Assembly (NCBI RefSeq): GCF_044647545.1
Contig: NZ_CP172818.1
Origin: Escherichia coli
Lineage (GTDB): Bacteria; Pseudomonadota; Gammaproteobacteria; Enterobacterales; Enterobacteriaceae
Length of the DNA: 64,000 bases
Direction: 5' to 3' (one strand)
In this document: positions 55,251 to 64,000 of the stretch, in pieces
Numbering within the stretch: the stretch's first letter is position 1
Layout: the number at the start of each line of letters is the position of its first letter
Notes under the pieces: generated by a model
Seen by the model: the letters and a program-made list of their open reading frames with translations, nothing else
Database searches by the model: none
What the model was told of the DNA's origin: nothing
Program-made: the position numbers and the translations under genes

Positions 55251-55396
55251 AACTCACATGATGATACTGACTGTTGCTCACTCTTTGAAGTGATTTGCGT
55301 CACATTCAGGGAATTCCTCAATGTAGCGCATTATGTATAAATCTTAATCGTCATGGTTTATGGAAGACGAATTAGCGTGTTTTGTAAATCAGAGGA

Positions 55397-56203
55397 TTAA
55401 TAACCAGCTTTATCAATCACAAAGGTTTTGCCACAGTTGCCTGGGTGTGGTTGTGGCAAGAATGAGTTGGCAGAAAGCGGAGCGTTGATGGCGTCAGCTT
55501 TGATCGAGATCTGAATTTCAGTCAAATACGCAGGGTTACCCTGGCACGTTAGCTTAACTGCTTTCACGTTCTCTTTTCCCCAGCTTTTGGCAAAGGCGGC
55601 ATCAAAGTCACGGCGGCTCACTGTTTTACCGTAGTTATCCGCAAGGAATTTTCCGGCTTCGCTCTCTTTAATTTCTTGATTCAGGCGTACCATCGTGCCG
55701 AAGTATGCGTCTGGATCAAAACCAAAGCAGGCACCGTGTTTGGCATATTCGTAGCGTTCCAGGCAGGAACGTCCGCCAGCTCCTGGCATGACTTCACTTA
55801 GTTTAGCGGCCGTTTCCAGCGATAACCCGGTTTCCGGAGATGAACACATTCGGCTGGCGCGCGCTTCTGGTAGATTCGGGATTGGGCGAGTAGCGCAACC
55901 GAAGCGCATCCAGCGGCGTTCATCAACACCACGGGCAGCAACCGATTTAGGCAATCCTGGCCACAGACCATGTACGGTCAGAAAATCAGCTTTGTTGGTC
56001 GTTTCGGTTTGCAGGCGACATTCATCTCGTTCGTTACGATTTCGATCGTGTTGACTCTGGCAAAATCCGGTTTGCCAGGAGAGGGCCAGGACATAGCGAT
56101 CAAAATCGCCATACTGTTTTGCCTGCAACGCCACGGCGTTGGCAGAAGAGAAGGGAAGCAGAGAAACCGCGAGCAACGCGGCGTTACGCCAGAATGCTTT
56201 CAT
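55397..56203 (-). CDS. rna: Periplasmic ribonuclease I (RNase T2 family)
   Basis: Start at MKAFWRNAALLAVSLLPFSSANA (signal peptide), 268 aa; T2-family catalytic motifs VHGLWPG and YAKHGAC present. Confidence 0.9.
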   Translation of the reverse strand: MKAFWRNAALLAVSLLPFSSANAVALQAKQYGDFDRYVLALSWQTGFCQSQHDRNRNERDECRLQTETTNKADFLTVHGLWPGLPKSVAARGVDERRWMRFGCATRPIPNLPEARASRMCSSPETGLSLETAAKLSEVMPGAGGRSCLERYEYAKHGACFGFDPDAYFGTMVRLNQEIKESEAGKFLADNYGKTVSRRDFDAAFAKSWGKENVKAVKLTCQGNPAYLTEIQISIKADAINAPLSANSFLPQPHPGNCGKTFVIDKAGY

Positions 56204-56249
56204 AATGGGTGTGGAACTCATACATATACTGAATACTATCTATTAAATC

Positions 56250-56316: not shown

Positions 56317-57780
56317 TTAGTTCCACATGGCGAGAATCGGCCAGCCAACCAACAGCAGCATAGAGATGTAAATCACCCCGAAGATTGCACCAAGTCGCCA
56401 GTAATCTTTTGATTTCACATAGCCACAGCCGTAAATAATCACCCCAGGACCGGTTGCATACGGCGTCAGACAGCCCATGATACCGATAGACAGCACCAGC
56501 AGAATACACAGTTGTTCCATTGGTACGCCCGGAATACCTTTACCGACGGCCAGAATAACCGGCAGCATGGTTGCGGTGTGCGCAGACAGGCTGGCAAACA
56601 GGTAGTGTGCAAAGTAGAACACCAGAACCAGTACAATCACCGTTGCGTTTGGTGAGAAGCCTTCCAGGTGTGTACTCATCGTGTTGGCGAACCAGTCGAT
56701 AAAGCCAGAACGGGTCAGGCCATTCGCCATAACAACCAGCGTTGCCAGGTTGACCAGCGTGTTCCATGCGCTGTTATAGCGAGTAATGTCTTTCCACGGC
56801 ACAACGTGCAGCGCCAGCATCAGCGAAACTGCCAGCAGACCTACCGCAGTAGCATTAATGACTTCACTGCCAAATACCCACAAACCTAAGCTGAGCAATA
56901 CAAGGCCAATCAGCGTCCACTCTCTGCGCGTCAGCGCACCCATGGTTTTTAGTTCATCACCCGCCCAGGTTGCCACTTCTTCACTGTGTGTGATTTCCGG
57001 TTTGTACAGCACGTAGGAAAGCCACGGCGCAATGATAAGCAAGATAACCCCAACCGGCAGGAAGCAGAGGAACCACTGCAACCAGCTAATCTGGATACCA
57101 GCAATTTTGCTGACGAACTCCAGACCCAGCACGTTTGGTGCCGCACCGGTGACAAACATGGACGAACTCAGACTGGTACTAATGACCATCATCCACATCA
57201 AATAGCCGCCAATACGACGCGCGGACGGATCGTTCGGGAATGATTTAAACAGCGGCGGCAGGTTTTTAATGACCGGAAAAACCGTACCCCCGGTACGCGC
57301 GGTGTTGGACGGTGTAAACGGTGCCAGCAGAATGTCGATAATGACAATCGCATAACCCAACGTCAGCGTGCGTTTGCCCATGAATTTCACCAGGAAAAGG
57401 GCAATGCGACGACCTAACCCGGAAACTTCATACCCTAATGCAAAAATAAATGCGCCAAATACCAGCCATACCGTGGTGCTGGAAAAACCAGCCAGACCCC
57501 ATTTCAGCGCCTGTTTTTGCGCATTAAACGCTGGGTCAGCTAATTCTTTGGCATCAAAGAGCAGGTAATTACTGCCAATAACGCAAATAGTAACCGCAAT
57601 AAAACTGATCGCCGTTGCCGGAATTGGCTCGAGGATCATGCCGACAATCATTGCCACAAACACTGCAAAGTAATGCCACGCCTGCGGCGGCATACCGTCA
57701 GGTACAGGGATAAGAAACATGACACCCATCACCACCAGGGGCGCCAATAATTTCCATATATTATCTTTTGCTAAAGACAT
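56317..57780 (-). CDS. citT: Citrate:succinate antiporter (DASS family)
   Basis: 487-aa polytopic membrane protein recognised as CitT; last gene of the citCDEFXGT operon. Confidence 0.92.
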   Translation of the reverse strand: MSLAKDNIWKLLAPLVVMGVMFLIPVPDGMPPQAWHYFAVFVAMIVGMILEPIPATAISFIAVTICVIGSNYLLFDAKELADPAFNAQKQALKWGLAGFSSTTVWLVFGAFIFALGYEVSGLGRRIALFLVKFMGKRTLTLGYAIVIIDILLAPFTPSNTARTGGTVFPVIKNLPPLFKSFPNDPSARRIGGYLMWMMVISTSLSSSMFVTGAAPNVLGLEFVSKIAGIQISWLQWFLCFLPVGVILLIIAPWLSYVLYKPEITHSEEVATWAGDELKTMGALTRREWTLIGLVLLSLGLWVFGSEVINATAVGLLAVSLMLALHVVPWKDITRYNSAWNTLVNLATLVVMANGLTRSGFIDWFANTMSTHLEGFSPNATVIVLVLVFYFAHYLFASLSAHTATMLPVILAVGKGIPGVPMEQLCILLVLSIGIMGCLTPYATGPGVIIYGCGYVKSKDYWRLGAIFGVIYISMLLLVGWPILAMWN

Positions 57781-57829
57781 ACGGGTTCTCCGACAATTAA
57801 TATTCCAATTTTATCAAGTGCTTAAATTA

Positions 57830-59234
<1,405 letters not shown>

Positions 59235-59237
59235 GGC

Positions 59238-60770
59238 TTATTCCTTCACCTGATGCACAACATCGATCACCGAGCCATCGCGGTAACGCACAACGGCAAC
59301 GACGCGGTCGGTGAATTCAATCGGCTGTGGTTCACCGGTCAGCAGACGCGCACGTTCACGCAGCCACTCAATAGAAACCACTTTGATCCCCGCTTCCTGC
59401 AGACGTTCTGCCAGCTCCGGACGTGCCGGGTTAACAGCGATGCCGTGGTCTGTGACCAGAATATCGACACTGGAGCCCGGGGTGATGCAGGTCAGCACGT
59501 TATCCACCAGCGTCGGAATACGACCGCGTACCAGCGGCGCGACGATGATGGAAAGCGCAGAGGCAATCGCGGTATCGCAGTGACCACCGGAAGCACCACG
59601 CAGTACGCCGTCAGAGCCGGTCAGCACGTTAACGTTGAACTGGGTGTCAATTTCCAGCGCACTCAGTACCACCACGTCGAGACGATCAACCGATGCGCCT
59701 TTCGACCCCCAGTTAGCGTACTGGTTGGCGCTGATTTCGATGTGATTGGGGTTACGGGCCAGCGATTGCGCAGCATGGCTGTCAAAGCTCTGCACATCCA
59801 GCAGTTTGCGGATCAAACCTTTTTCGTGCAGCTCAACCATCGTTGCGGTAATACCGCCGAGGGCGAAGTCGGCGCGAATATCGCGGCTACGCATTTTGTC
59901 TTCCAGGAAACGGGTTACCGCCAGCGAAGCGCCGCCGGTGCCGGTCTGCATGGAGAAACCTTCTTTGAAGTAGCCAGAGTTAACAATCACATCCGCAGCG
60001 CTACGGGCAATAAGCAGTTCGCGCGGGTTAGTGGTCATACGGGTAGCACCAGCGCCGATTTTTGCAGCATCGCCAACGCGATCAACTTTGACGATCAGAT
60101 CAACCTGATCTTGCTCAATGCTTGCCGGATTATGCGGATAAGGCAGCAGTTCTTCGGTAAGCATCACGACCTGTTTTGCGTTGTCGGCATCAACCATTGC
60201 ATAGCCGAGGGAGCCGCAGCAGGCTTTACCGGAGTAGCCGTTGGCATTACCGAATTCATCACAGGACGGGACGCCGAGGAAAGCCACGTCGATATTCAGT
60301 TCGCCGCTCTGTACCAGATGCACACGTCCGCCGTGAGAGTGGATTTGCACCGGTTCCGCCAGCAGACCACGGGAGATTTCTTCCGCCAGTGGACCGCGCA
60401 GGCCAGAGGTATAAATGCGGGTAACCACGCCCTGGCGAATGTGTTCTACCAGCGGCGCATGGCAATCACTCAGGGAGCTGGAGGCCAGAGTCAGGTTTTT
60501 AAAGCCCATCTTCGCGATGACGTCCATCACCATATTGACGGTCAGGTCACCGCCACGGAAAGCGTGATGGAAGGAAACCGTCATACCGTCCTGTAAGCCA
60601 GAGCGACGAATCGCTTCTTCCAGGTTGGCGCACAGTTTGCGATCGCGCGCTTTTTCAGCCTGGTAGGTTTGCTTTGGCGAGTTCTGGAAAGCGGCAAGAT
60701 CGCATTCAGCGCGACGATTCCAGGCCGCTACCCGTTCTTGTCGTTGAGATTGTTCAATTTTCTGCGTCAT
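59238..60770 (-). CDS. citF: Citrate lyase alpha subunit (citrate CoA-transferase)
   Basis: 510-aa ORF recognised as CitF. Confidence 0.95.
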   Translation of the reverse strand: MTQKIEQSQRQERVAAWNRRAECDLAAFQNSPKQTYQAEKARDRKLCANLEEAIRRSGLQDGMTVSFHHAFRGGDLTVNMVMDVIAKMGFKNLTLASSSLSDCHAPLVEHIRQGVVTRIYTSGLRGPLAEEISRGLLAEPVQIHSHGGRVHLVQSGELNIDVAFLGVPSCDEFGNANGYSGKACCGSLGYAMVDADNAKQVVMLTEELLPYPHNPASIEQDQVDLIVKVDRVGDAAKIGAGATRMTTNPRELLIARSAADVIVNSGYFKEGFSMQTGTGGASLAVTRFLEDKMRSRDIRADFALGGITATMVELHEKGLIRKLLDVQSFDSHAAQSLARNPNHIEISANQYANWGSKGASVDRLDVVVLSALEIDTQFNVNVLTGSDGVLRGASGGHCDTAIASALSIIVAPLVRGRIPTLVDNVLTCITPGSSVDILVTDHGIAVNPARPELAERLQEAGIKVVSIEWLRERARLLTGEPQPIEFTDRVVAVVRYRDGSVIDVVHQVKE

Positions 60771-60780
60771 TTTGATTGCC

Positions 60781-61689
60781 TTATTCTTCGCGGATGCCGG
60801 AAAGTTCTGCGCGGGAGAGCACCAGACGGGCGCGATCGATAACCGGACCGTCTACCATCTTGCCGTTCAGGGAAACCACGCCGAGGCCTTCGCGAGCGGC
60901 GGCTTCAGCGGCTTCTACGACGCGGCGGGCGTGATCCACTTCTTTCTGAGTCGGTGCGTAGAGGTTGTGCAGCAGATCAATCTGACGCGGGTTGATCAGC
61001 GATTTGCCGTCAAAGCCCAGCTGTTTGATGTGGGCGGCTTCTTGCAGGAATCCGGCTTCGTTGTTAGCGTCGGAATAGACGGTATCGAACGCCTGAATAC
61101 CCGCAGAGCGCGCGGCCTGCAAAATGGAGCAGCGTGCGAACAGCAGTTCAGTTCCTTCCGGAGAGCGTTCTGTACGCAGGTTGCGCACATAGTCTTCTGC
61201 ACCGAGGGCGATACCGATCAAACGCTCGGAAGCGTGAGCGATTTCCACTGCGCGGGTAATGCCCAGCGGAGATTCAATCGCTGCCAGCAGGCCGGTGCTG
61301 CCGGGTTCACGACCACAGGCTTTTTCGATGCGCAGGATCTCTTTTTCGATATCCAGAACATCCTGAGCGGTATCGGTTTTCGGCAGACGCACAACGTCCG
61401 CACCACCGCGAACGACGGCTTCCAGGTCGTTAACACCCCATTCGGAATCCAGCGCGTTTACACGCACAATGGTTTCAATATCGCGATACAGCGGATGTTG
61501 CAGCGCGTGGTAAACCATGCGGCGGGCTGTGTCTTTTTCACGCAATGCCACGGAGTCTTCGAGGTCAAACATCAGGGCATCAGCCGGGTAGATGAATGAG
61601 TTGCTGACCATCGCGGCATTGGCACCTGGCACAAACAGCATGCTGCGGCGGGTGCGAGTTTTACGTTGTTGCAGCGAAGCGGAAATCAT
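60781..61689 (-). CDS. citE: Citrate lyase beta subunit (citryl-CoA lyase)
   Basis: Start at [22 protein letters not shown] (302 aa); HpcH/HpaI aldolase-like fold; overlaps the citD stop by 4 bp. Confidence 0.92.
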
Positions 61690-61982
61690 TGGCAATCCTC
61701 CCATGGCAGAGCCGGGATACCGCTGGCGCGTGCCAGCAGGGCTTCCAGTCGTGCACGTAAAATGCAGTCCAGTGCGCCTTTGTCATCGACATTCAGCTGT
61801 ACGCCGCGCACGTTGTAGCGGGCGAGAACGTCCAGAATGGTGGTGCGAATTGCATCGCCAAACTGTTTCTCAACGCTGCTGTTGATTTGCAGGTCGATAT
61901 CCTGCGTATCGAGTGGGGCGATGCGTATCATCACATCCCCAGACTCAAGGGTGCCTGCAACGGCGGGCTGGTTTATTTTCAT
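61686..61982 (-). CDS. citD: Citrate lyase gamma subunit (acyl carrier protein)
   Basis: 98-aa [26 protein letters not shown]… with the prosthetic-group serine context (GTLESGD). Confidence 0.9.
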
Positions 61983-61996
61983 TTTTCACCTGTTTC

Positions 61997-63055
61997 TCAT
62001 GCGGGGGTCTTTTGACGAGCTGCCGCGTCCTGGCGGGAGTGCTCAAGCAGGTTCTGCAAATAATGCAGCGTGACTGCAGGGACCAGCGGCGCGATAGCCG
62101 TGAGATCGTTTTTCGCCAGCAGTTGACGTACCCGGGAAGCGGATATCGGCATCTCCTGGTAACGCAGCCGCTCAATTTCAACCAGTTCGATGGGCGGTGC
62201 GGAGATAGTCGGCGTTTCCAGCCAGTAGCGCATATCCTGGTTGTACTGGGCGGTAACGCGACAAAAGGGTTCAGTACCGACAAAGCGGTGAGTTACACCC
62301 AGCGCGGGAGCGAGGTACTGACGGAAAATCTTCAGATCAATTTCGGTGTAACAATGGTTAATGACGCTCTGTTCTTTAATGAAGTAGCAAGGGAACGTAG
62401 CGCGGGAGATGATGTATTCGGAGCCGCGATGCACAGTCAGGCGTGGAATATCGGCGGTGCCTTTTAACACCAGATCCAGCCGGTCTTCATAGGGGAAGCG
62501 TGAAGAATCTTCTTTGACTAAAAACAGATGCAACCAGTCGCACTGTGCCGCAGCCTGTTGAATCAGATAACGGTGACCATTCGTAAAGGGATTGGCGTTC
62601 ATCACAATGCAGCCAATCTTGTTCCCTGGATGACGAAATTTTTTCAGCGATTCGGCATAGCGTTTCAGTCGCGTGGCGCTGTTTTCCATCAGCACCATCA
62701 CGCCGGGTACGCTGGTCAGCGTGGAAAAACCGCACTGGCGGAACAGCGCCTCGTATTCGGTTTTGGTATAAATAAACAGATGCGTGCTGTGCCGCTCATA
62801 GGCGAGGTTTATCAATTCAGTGGCTAATGTCAGCGCCAGTCCTTCACCGCGAACGGATTCACTGATAGCAACGCATTTAATAATATTTCCGGCAATTCCA
62901 CCGCACGCGATAAGCTTTTCATCGCGGGTTACGGTAATAAATACTTCGACTGTGGTGTCAACGCTCAAATCATTTTCATGCAGGAATTGGGCGATTTCCG
63001 CCATTTTTTTATTTTCTGAACGTTTTACACGGGTGAAAATATCATTGCCGAACAT
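61997..63055 (-). CDS. citC: [Citrate (pro-3S)-lyase] ligase
   Basis: Start at MFGNDIFTRVKRSENKKMAEIAQ (352 aa); the longer 381-aa track ORF start is rejected. Confidence 0.88.
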   Translation of the reverse strand: MFGNDIFTRVKRSENKKMAEIAQFLHENDLSVDTTVEVFITVTRDEKLIACGGIAGNIIKCVAISESVRGEGLALTLATELINLAYERHSTHLFIYTKTEYEALFRQCGFSTLTSVPGVMVLMENSATRLKRYAESLKKFRHPGNKIGCIVMNANPFTNGHRYLIQQAAAQCDWLHLFLVKEDSSRFPYEDRLDLVLKGTADIPRLTVHRGSEYIISRATFPCYFIKEQSVINHCYTEIDLKIFRQYLAPALGVTHRFVGTEPFCRVTAQYNQDMRYWLETPTISAPPIELVEIERLRYQEMPISASRVRQLLAKNDLTAIAPLVPAVTLHYLQNLLEHSRQDAAARQKTPA

Positions 63056-63213
63056 AATAAATAGTATCCTGAAGGTGCATGTTGTTATCGATTTGCAACG
63101 AATGTTGTTCGATGTTGCAAACTGATAACCTTTTATTTTCACTTGGGAGAAAGGGGGGCGATCGAGGTATATCTTTTTCTCCTTTCGCTATACATCCTAA
63201 GGAGTATTGCTGC

Positions 63214-63236
63214 GTGAAATTTTGATTTATTTCACA
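63214..63236. promoter_or_regulatory. Palindrome GTGAAAT-N8-ATTTCAC in the AT-rich citC/citA divergent control region (candidate regulator-binding site)
   Basis: Perfect 7-bp arms read directly; the right arm contains the TCACA half-site of a CRP-like motif; the region also carries repeated TTTAA/TTAAT motifs. Confidence 0.3.
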
Positions 63237-63434
63237 TAGAGTTAGTGGTTTTTTATTTATTTAATGGTTTTAAGTTTTTTAATTAATGTAATTACGAAAT
63301 GACCCGCAGGTTTAAGTGATTTAATTGATTTAATGAATAAAATTTGCCACGATTATATTTAATATCTATGTATTTTGATTCAACATTTTAATTACATCTG
63401 TCAAAGAGGCTCGGGACAACCCGCAAGGAAAACA

Positions 63435-64000
63435 ATGTTGCAGCTTAACGAGAATAAACAGTTTGCATTTTTCCAAAGACTGGCATTTCCGCTGCGTATC
63501 TTTTTGCTGATTCTGGTGTTCTCAATATTTGTCATTGCAGCCCTGGCGCAATATTTTACGGCCAGTTTTGAGGACTATTTAACGCTTCATGTGCGCGACA
63601 TGGCAATGAATCAGGCAAAAATTATTGCTTCTAATGACAGTATCATCAGCGCAGTGAAAACGCGTGACTACAAGAGGCTGGCGACCATCGCTGACAAATT
63701 ACAAAGAGATACTGATTTCGATTATGTGGTGATTGGCGATCGGCACTCGATTCGTCTTTACCATCCTAATCCGGAGAAAATTGGTTATCCTATGCAGTTC
63801 ACCAAACCGGGCGCGCTGGAGAAAGGGGAGAGCTACTTCATCACCGGGAAAGGGTCAATTGGCATGGCGATGCGTGCCAAAACGCCAATCTTTGATGACG
63901 ATGGAAAAGTCATCGGCGTGGTGTCGATTGGCTACCTGGTGAGTAAAATCGATAGCTGGCGGGCTGAGTTTTTATTACCGATGGCTGGCGTGTTTGTCGT
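63435..64000 (+). CDS. citA: Citrate-sensing histidine kinase, N-terminal part (continues beyond window end)
   Basis: ATG-initiated MLQLNENKQFAFFQRLAFPLRIFLLILVFSIFVIAALAQ… (TM1 then periplasmic PAS-like citrate-binding domain); open to the end of the window. Confidence 0.85.
   Translation, partial: MLQLNENKQFAFFQRLAFPLRIFLLILVFSIFVIAALAQYFTASFEDYLTLHVRDMAMNQAKIIASNDSIISAVKTRDYKRLATIADKLQRDTDFDYVVIGDRHSIRLYHPNPEKIGYPMQFTKPGALEKGESYFITGKGSIGMAMRAKTPIFDDDGKVIGVVSIGYLVSKIDSWRAEFLLPMAGVFV

Follow-up and report, generated by a model that had tools for sequence, protein, structure and literature searches.

A candidate class II CRP/FNR-type promoter layout in the known citC-dpiB control region of Escherichia coli, not centred on its perfect palindrome

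The divergently oriented genes citC and dpiB (= citA) of Escherichia coli flank an A+T-rich spacer that contains a perfect inverted repeat, and the question we addressed was which bases of this spacer are likely to carry its regulatory signals. The DNA analyzed, referred to below as the window, was a stretch of 64,000 nucleotides whose source organism is E. coli; in it, citC (citCDEFXGT operon) and dpiB are separated by the region studied here. A preliminary description, made from the letters of the window, had placed a ~290-bp control region at 63143-63434 and pointed out a GTGAAAT-N8-ATTTCAC palindrome, a pattern that it called consistent with regulator binding sites. The names that it gave to the divergent genes were right, since RefSeq, on an identical genome, assigns citC to the minus strand and dpiB (= citA), in the opposite orientation, to the plus strand, where dpiA and dcuC come next. 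What the region represents is already known: it controls the citrate-fermentation locus of E. coli in both directions, and the regulators guessed in the preliminary description (DpiA/CitB, NarL and CRP) are already named in the literature. We found no difference in kind from the citC promoter and dpiB-citC spacer of E. coli K-12, which is the same locus (EcoCyc, RegulonDB; Yamamoto et al. 2008, 2009; Scheu et al. 2012), and the literature on this spacer describes CitB/DpiA binding and induction by citrate and anaerobiosis. The 501 bases round the palindrome were 100% identical to many E. coli chromosomes, the region was found in 5,419 of 5,426 complete E. coli genomes, and the identity of the spacer was 97-100% in at least 5,370 E. 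coli genomes. Because the spacer regulates an E. coli operon that has been well studied, it carries little weight for discovery; the practical value of the analysis is a sharper map, in which the start of citC is corrected.

The correction concerned the left boundary, which the preliminary description had set too far to the right. When CitC homologues of 80 species were compared by tblastn, they aligned from residue 1, which is the Met of the ATG at 63055 and also the RefSeq start. The 29-codon extension to a GTG at 63142 contained stops or a frame shift in many genera and hence was not conserved. A citC start at GTG 63142 was ruled out by the RefSeq start, the 80-species alignment and the non-conserved extension together. 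With citC starting at ATG 63055 and not at GTG 63142, the real spacer extends from 63056 to 63434 (Table 1). The 87 bp nearest citC had been missed because the longest open reading frame had been taken as the gene; these 87 bp contained several short motifs that were conserved in an alignment of 24 spacers from close relatives.

Table 1. Features of the citC-dpiB region (positions in the window; strand given where assigned)
Feature	Position	Strand	Remarks
citC coding sequence	61997-63055	-	[Citrate (pro-3S)-lyase] ligase, 352 aa; ATG start at 63055 per RefSeq (identical genome)
citC-dpiB intergenic control region	63056-63434		379 bp
Predicted citC leader	63056-63186	-	Conserved GTTATCA, CAACA and GCAACAA; Shine-Dalgarno AGGA at 63070-63067
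Predicted citC transcription start, ~63187	63186-63189	-	From the -10 position; 16-mer centre at -41.5; leader of ~132 nt
NarL-like site, 7-2-7 inverted heptamers TACATCC-TA-AGGAGTA	63191-63206		Overlaps the predicted -10; spans -4 to -19
Predicted citC -10 hexamer, TAGGAT (citC strand)	63194-63199	-	TAnnAT exactly 21 nt after the 16-mer
Perfect inverted repeat GTGAAAT-N8-ATTTCAC	63214-63235		Left arm (63214-63220) conserved in Escherichia only
Conserved 16-mer, TGTGAAATAAATCAAA (citC strand) = TTTGATTTATTTCACA (plus strand)	63221-63236	-	Putative CRP/FNR-family dyad, centre 63228.5
Box 1, three direct TTTAA(T/G) with a 9-bp period	63257-63285	+	Starts at 63260, 63269 and 63278; ~-73 to -98
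Box 2, three direct TTTAA(T/G) with a 9-bp period	63308-63336	+	Starts at 63311, 63320 and 63329; ~-124 to -149
Conserved block AATTTGCCACGAT (AATCTGTAACGAT in other genera)	63341-63353	+	Cross-genus conservation
Conserved block AACATTTTAATTACA	63382-63396	+	39-53 nt upstream of the dpiB ATG
dpiB (= citA), 5' part	63435-64000	+	Citrate sensor kinase; continues past the window end

For comparison of the spacer across genera, a scan for CitC in one genome per species yielded 80 loci, and a DpiB homologue was located divergently upstream in 52 of them. In most of the more than 50 Enterobacterales compared the spacer was ~305-436 bp long; two outliers were longer, at 514 and 556 bp. The close-relative alignment comprised 24 spacers from Escherichia, Citrobacter and Salmonella. 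In this alignment TTTTGATTTATTTCACA (63220-63236) was 100% identical in all 24, and TACATC[C/G/T]TAAGG[A/G]GTAT was invariant save at the bracketed positions. The other conserved blocks of the 24 spacers were ATGGTTTTAAGTT.TTTAATTA, TTTAATTGATTTAA, AAT.TG..ACGAT and AACATTTT.ATTACA. Eight E. coli lineages showed variation at 63209 and 63211 and none in the conserved blocks.

The 16-mer at 63221-63236 consists of two 5-bp half-sites 6 bp apart (TTTGA-N6-TCACA), of which the promoter-distal one, TGTGA, is of the CRP type and the proximal one, TCAA, of the FNR type. The pattern TGA-N6-TCA was invariant in all 52 dpiB-linked sequences. The CRP-specific G of the distal half-site was present in 46 of the 52 and a T at that position was seen once, while the proximal TCAA was kept in every one of the 52 and is a perfect ATCAA in E. 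coli. Scanning for CRP, as the preliminary description had suggested, did yield a match at the 16-mer with 1 mismatch in the 10 positions of the core TGTGA-N6-TCACA, its distal TGTGA being perfect and kept across genera. Matches of this quality nevertheless occurred at the chance rate, with 2 sites of at most 1 mismatch in the 64-kb window and 1.8 expected. The case for this putative dyad is one of conservation and not of motif score.

When the sequences were anchored on the 16-mer, from E. coli to Providencia, the hexamer that is TAGGAT in E. coli was found as TACGAT, TATGAT, TAATAT, TATTAT and TACTAT in other genera. Of 51 distinct sequences, 48 had TAnnnT at offset 21 and no more than four had it at any other offset; the bases round the hexamer otherwise varied freely. 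The hexamer at 63199-63194 would be the -10 element of citC, and since it begins 29.5 bp from the dyad centre, the dyad would be centred at -41.5. Class II promoters, whether activated by CRP or by FNR, are defined by a site centred at -41.5. The comparison points to a class II CRP/FNR-type layout of the citC promoter with a start near 63187, at which a dimer of the CRP/FNR family bound at -41.5 would touch RNA polymerase. The same dyad/-10 layout was also found upstream of citC in loci of Serratia, Ewingella, Hafnia psychrotolerans, Pantoea and Erwinia outside the dpiB-linked set, and two species among these other cit loci had the full CRP-type TGTGA-N6-TCAC. A simple sigma-70 scan of the region indicated no promoter, and the predicted -10, TAGGAT, is weak (4 of 6 positions). 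Such a blank scan is expected for activator-dependent promoters and adds no independent support for the -10. The sigma-70 ChIP tables for glucose minimal medium had no peak inside the spacer, and a literature search for a published citC start site gave nothing usable. We also noted that an invariant A at -44 and another at -41 are explained by neither the CRP nor the FNR consensus.

We consider CRP to be the likelier occupant of the dyad at -41.5, with a chance that we would put at about even or slightly better. CRP is favored over FNR because it requires fewer mismatches, because two species have TCAC proximally, and because T is rare at the FNR-specific distal position. CRP sites at -41.5 of both citC and citS of K. 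pneumoniae were reportedly described by Meyer, Dimroth and Bott in 2001. The K. pneumoniae citS-citC2 spacer is bound by CitB and CRP (PMC2735749), and the C. rodentium orthologous promoter is controlled, according to the authors of a biosensor study, by the host regulators DpiAB, NarL and cAMP-CRP (PMC12405535). In the CRP genomic-SELEX list neither citC nor dpiB was present. Activity of the promoter was seen with 20 mM glucose present, and glucose is said to induce the E. coli system (PMC12405535); this fits poorly with simple cAMP-CRP activation.

If the 16-mer were an FNR site, FNR and not CRP would activate citC from -41.5 and would give anaerobic induction, a reading that we regard as unlikely. 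The position at -41.5 is the classic one for FNR activation. The expression of cit is anaerobic, the proximal half-site is of the FNR type in all 52 sequences and perfect in E. coli, and FNR is among the regulators given for citC in a network compiled from regulatory databases (PMC5311112). However, the distal half-site reads GTGA and not TTGA in the 46 sequences with the CRP-specific G, with the single T already mentioned, and the two species with TGTGA-N6-TCAC have CRP-type halves on both sides. The 16-mer also differs from the FNR core TTGAT-N4-ATCAA at 2 positions, a level of agreement that is commonplace (45 such matches in the window against 30 expected). Moreover, we queried the supplementary tables of Myers et al. 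2013 (PMC3688515) by coordinate and by gene name, and they showed neither an FNR ChIP peak nor a predicted FNR site at the spacer, and no expression dependent on FNR, in the wild type and in hns/stpA, in cultures grown in glucose minimal medium without citrate.

It is also conceivable, but in our estimate distinctly unlikely, that the hybrid dyad is deliberately maintained so that both CRP and FNR can occupy it, combining carbon and oxygen signals in one 16-bp element. In one version of such dual use FNR may activate while cAMP-CRP binds unproductively and competes with it. If true, this competition would account both for the requirement of the E. coli system for anaerobiosis and for its tolerance of glucose, or even stimulation by it, which sets it apart from the Klebsiella system with its catabolite repression. 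The only feature of the region that might repay experiment is the pairing of a CRP-type with an FNR-type half-site, which is strictly conserved.

The preliminary description had noted repeated TTTAA/TTAAT motifs, and the counts bore this out: TTTAA was observed 8 times with 2.3 expected and TTAAT 7 times with 1.8 expected, and none of 1000 dinucleotide shuffles attained either count. Every TTTAA copy was on the plus strand; its reverse complement, TTAAA, occurred 0 times. The repeats include two triplets, box 1 and box 2 (Table 1), at a distance of 51 bp from each other, with box 2 including a tandem TGATTTAAT x2. These triplets were conserved across genera. At position 63267, in box 1, there is a G allele and an A allele, the latter in K-12. 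Like the operators of the CitB family, they are A+T-rich tandem direct repeats upstream of a promoter. A comparable arrangement is the operator of MaeR, a regulator of the CitB family in Lactobacillus casei, where three tandem TTATT(A/T)AA are bound in a divergent promoter region (PMC5457438). Box 1 likewise has three units and opens with an exact TTATTTAA; the organism, the spacing and the target genes differ, and the DpiA operators in the present spacer are predicted from sequence.

A truncation made in the C. rodentium orthologue helped to locate the citrate signal. The truncated promoter, minus the annotated DpiA operator sites (after EcoCyc), loses citrate induction (PMC12405535). From the primers in the supplementary material of that study we determined that the truncation, DTR305, begins with CATCTAACTCTTTGTGAAATAAATCAAA, the equivalent of 63248-63221. 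In the equivalent of DTR305 everything upstream of 63248 is gone, but the 16-mer, the NarL-like site and the -10 remain, as does the complete leader. The lack of a citrate response in DTR305 places the entry of the citrate signal to the right of 63248, in the part that holds the TTTAA triplets, and because this construct keeps the 16-mer and yet shows no induction, the 16-mer alone is insufficient. We propose that phosphorylated DpiA (CitB) on the two TTTAA triplets would supply the citrate signal and would be indispensable. Box 1 is likely to be the DpiA (CitB) operator for citC activation, and box 2 is likely to be an operator of DpiA and/or DcuR. Box 2 and the blocks nearer dpiB probably serve the autoregulation of dpiBA and the input of DcuR. 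Scheu et al. (2012) reportedly placed a DcuR site ahead of citAB, for which either box 2 or the block at 63341-63353 is a candidate.

Another reading is that the 16-mer is a further site for DpiA or DcuR, of the CitB family, and not one for a CRP/FNR-family protein. The E. coli 16-mer does contain TGATTTAT, which is similar to the box 2 unit TGATTTAAT, and in the literature CitB-family regulators are bound in the region. We nevertheless consider this reading very unlikely. Distant genera swap the AT-rich middle of the 16-mer (TTGATCTGCTTCACA, TTGACCTGATTCACA) and keep the outer half-sites fixed, which is the signature of a dyad and not of a TTTAA direct repeat, and DTR305, a construct that has the 16-mer and lacks the upstream boxes, did not respond to citrate.

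The layout with a CRP/FNR-type dyad and separate DpiA boxes can be compared with that of the K. pneumoniae citC/citS-oadGAB-citAB locus (Bott, Meyer and Dimroth 1995-2001; PMC2735749). Both have divergent cit operons and an A+T-rich spacer, and in Klebsiella phosphorylated CitB acts with CRP as an auxiliary, as would be the case in E. coli. They differ in that the divergent partner is citS-oad-citAB in Klebsiella and dpiBA in E. coli, and that the citC paralogue is not the same. The E. coli-type site is moreover a conserved CRP-type/FNR-type hybrid, and the Klebsiella genes are catabolite-repressed whereas the E. coli system works with glucose. Among the loci that we retrieved there was none of the Klebsiella type, and one that had been taken as a comparator of that type proved to be without the divergent arrangement.

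Over the predicted -10 we identified a pair of inverted heptamers that resembles the 7-2-7 pairs of nitrate-regulated promoters bound by NarL (TACYYMT-N2-AKRRGTA). As in those, the two heptamers are inverted and 2 bp apart, and one of them, the right heptamer, is a perfect TACYYMT on the citC strand; unlike those, the second heptamer has 2 mismatches. The NarL scan that the preliminary description had called for thus gave a conserved 7-2-7 candidate site at 63191-63206, the quality of which is reached about twice per 64 kb by chance (2 matches against 2.2 expected). In Escherichia, Citrobacter and Salmonella the distance of the site from the dyad centre is constant at 30 bp and its sequence is invariant except at one position, and the upstream heptamer alone (TACTCCT or TACCCCT) was also found in Hafnia, Intestinirhabdus and Buttiauxella. 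Its position over the core promoter would suit a repressor. Nitrate strongly inhibits the C. rodentium orthologous promoter in an E. coli host (PMC12405535). Phosphorylated NarL over the -10 would block RNA polymerase and bring about nitrate repression, and occlusion of the -10 in this way would be the simplest mechanism for the inhibition. The ArcA scan, also called for in the preliminary description, found no match to the ArcA consensus within 3 mismatches in the spacer.

The preliminary expectation that a response regulator and a global regulator have binding sites here agreed in outline with the TTTAA triplets, the C. rodentium truncation and the published attribution to NarL and cAMP-CRP; its emphasis on the palindrome did not stand. 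The model as a whole, in which the known bidirectional region would combine a class II dyad, a NarL site over the -10 and DpiA triplets and would not be centred on the palindrome, seems to us rather likely, at somewhat better than an even chance. The candidates conserved at base level (63221-63236, 63194-63199, 63191-63206 and the TTTAA triplets) could guide the engineering of PcitC as a citrate or gut biosensor.

With regard to composition, the A+T-richness noted in the preliminary description was evident, the G+C content being 31.5% in 63143-63434, and 21.5% in 63220-63400, compared to 52.3% for the whole window. The perfect GTGAAAT-N8-ATTTCAC palindrome also exists, exactly at 63214-63235. 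It did not behave as a functional unit. When the intergenic region was dinucleotide-shuffled, 43% of the shuffles contained a perfect 7+7 inverted repeat with a spacer of 0-12 nt; for 63143-63434 the figure was 34%. Requiring at least 2 G/C per arm brought the frequency down to 16%. The left arm reads GGTAAAT, GATAAAT, GGTAATT or GATGAAT in Citrobacter and Salmonella, positions 63215-63216 were variable among the 24 Escherichia, Citrobacter and Salmonella sequences, and the conserved portion of the palindrome was its spacer and right arm only. The two arms were not conserved together, as the left arm varies outside Escherichia, and the symmetry was not rarer than chance. On the strength of the local shuffles and the unconserved left arm we ruled out the palindrome as a significant feature. 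It appears to be largely incidental, with its right arm and spacer belonging to a CRP/FNR-type site of different geometry. The left arm occupies roughly -27 to -33 of the predicted citC promoter, and the palindrome of Escherichia may have arisen by chance mirroring of the TGTGAAAT half-site by the sequence at -27 to -33. The palindrome is unsuitable as a target for mutagenesis.

That the 7-8-7 palindrome is itself the operator of a dimeric regulator, either specific to Escherichia or overlapping and competing with the CRP-type site, we hold to be highly improbable. The 7+7 repeat is perfect, and no variation was seen in either arm among the Escherichia sampled, E. albertii and cryptic clades included, or among the eight E. 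coli lineages, while 63209-63213 vary. Seven invariant columns inside one genus are, however, weak evidence at such divergence. A like palindrome arises in the proportion of shuffles given above, and the left arm is unconserved in Citrobacter and Salmonella, where all other functional blocks are kept. In addition, a TGAAAT-N8-ATTTCA consensus is not known for any regulator of E. coli, which also counts against such an operator.

The proposal that the inverted repeats act in RNA, as a leader hairpin, an attenuator or a small RNA, can be dismissed as having next to no probability: the predicted leader of ~132 nt does contain a strong 16-bp inverted repeat specific to E. coli (63084-63099/63114-63129) and a GGAGAAA/TTTCTCC pair, but the palindrome lies upstream of the predicted start and so outside the citC mRNA, RNAalifold on 20 leaders gave no consensus structure, pairing of the E. 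coli hairpin was 64.1% compared to 63.8% in shuffles with no excess covariation, the folding z-score was -1.0, the Rfam hits were confined to a eukaryotic scaRNA and a fragment of tmRNA that both scored far below threshold, and a terminator scan of the region indicated no terminator-like site. On the grounds of the absent consensus fold, the absent covariation and the z-score, we rejected both the repeat at 63084-63129 and the GGAGAAA/TTTCTCC pair as leader RNA structures. Two further candidates were rejected for poor conservation. A sigma-54 promoter at 63331-63346 (minus strand, TGGCA-N7-TTCA) was discarded because its GG is unconserved in other genera, and a mini-ORF with a Shine-Dalgarno-like AAGGAG at 63199-63204 followed by GTG-AAA-TTT-TGA was discarded because its GTG is unconserved. 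On the dpiB side, no convincing -10 or -35 could be assigned to a dpiB promoter by the sigma-70 scan and the cross-genus alignment, and the conserved block at 63382-63396 is probably part of that promoter. A peak in SELEX with the RpoS holoenzyme has been reported at this spacer (PMC5493296).

We examined the conserved CRP/FNR-type dyad of 16 nucleotides (16-mer) in the spacer between citC and dpiB (citA) and found that two of its A residues, at -44 (63231) and -41 (63228) of the inferred citC promoter, were invariant in 52/52 sequences. The two residues lie inside the pattern TGTGAA..A..TCAA and are specified by neither the CRP nor the FNR consensus. Variation within E. coli was noted at window position 63267 in box 1 (TTAATGGTTTT), the TTTAA triplet that is the likely DpiA operator, where K-12-like genomes have a G to A change at a position that was invariant in all other genera examined. 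Among complete E. coli genomes, 1,154 contain the 31-mer with A at 63267 and 4,204 the 31-mer with G. The A allele could alter the binding of DpiA. A larger change was seen in E. coli Ecol_AZ155, where the left arm of the GTGAAAT-N8-ATTTCAC palindrome (equivalent of window ~63214) is the exact point at which an IS1A element adjoins the spacer. The dpiB side was kept at this locus, and because all of the sequence on the citC side was replaced at the IS1A junction, the citC promoter of Ecol_AZ155 has been lost or separated.

The inferred citC leader contains an inverted repeat (see table) with 88% complementarity and a 14-nt loop, for which a strong hairpin is predicted in E. coli. Only the outer GTTA...TAAC of this repeat was conserved, and a search for covariation in the hairpin detected none. 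A GTG-start ORF antisense to citC enters the true citC-dpiB spacer for 70 bp at its 3' end. This ORF fits the description of nog1, an overlapping gene of EHEC whose published start is 40 bp upstream of the GTG (PMC4683798). A K-12 sigma-70 ChIP-seq peak at 650,810 (U00096.2) corresponds to window ~62786, only a few bases from that start.

Features of the window and their coordinates
Feature	Position	Strand	Location or remark
16-nt inverted repeat	63084-63099 / 63114-63129		inferred citC leader, outside the region of the preliminary description
GTG-start ORF, 101 aa	62820-63125	+	antisense to citC
citCDEFXGT operon	~56317-63055
AGTGATTTGCGTCACA	55289-55304		spacer ahead of rnk, just past the rna ORF on its 3' side
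rna ORF	55397-56221	minus

Myers et al. 2013 (PMC3688515) reported a strong sigma-70 ChIP-seq peak at 651,823-651,824 (U00096.2), whose occupancy under aerobic growth differed significantly from that under anaerobic growth. The peak maps to window ~63800, ~365 bp into dpiB, and points to a promoter that is internal or antisense. Their data also showed O2-dependent expression of citC, citD, citE, citF, citX and citT only in the hns/stpA double mutant (fold change of 0.20-0.27), hinting that H-NS/StpA affects the AT-rich citC promoter; the tables that were searched list no H-NS peak at the citC-dpiB spacer. Within the window, only the 16-mer and AGTGATTTGCGTCACA match the CRP core with no more than one mismatch.
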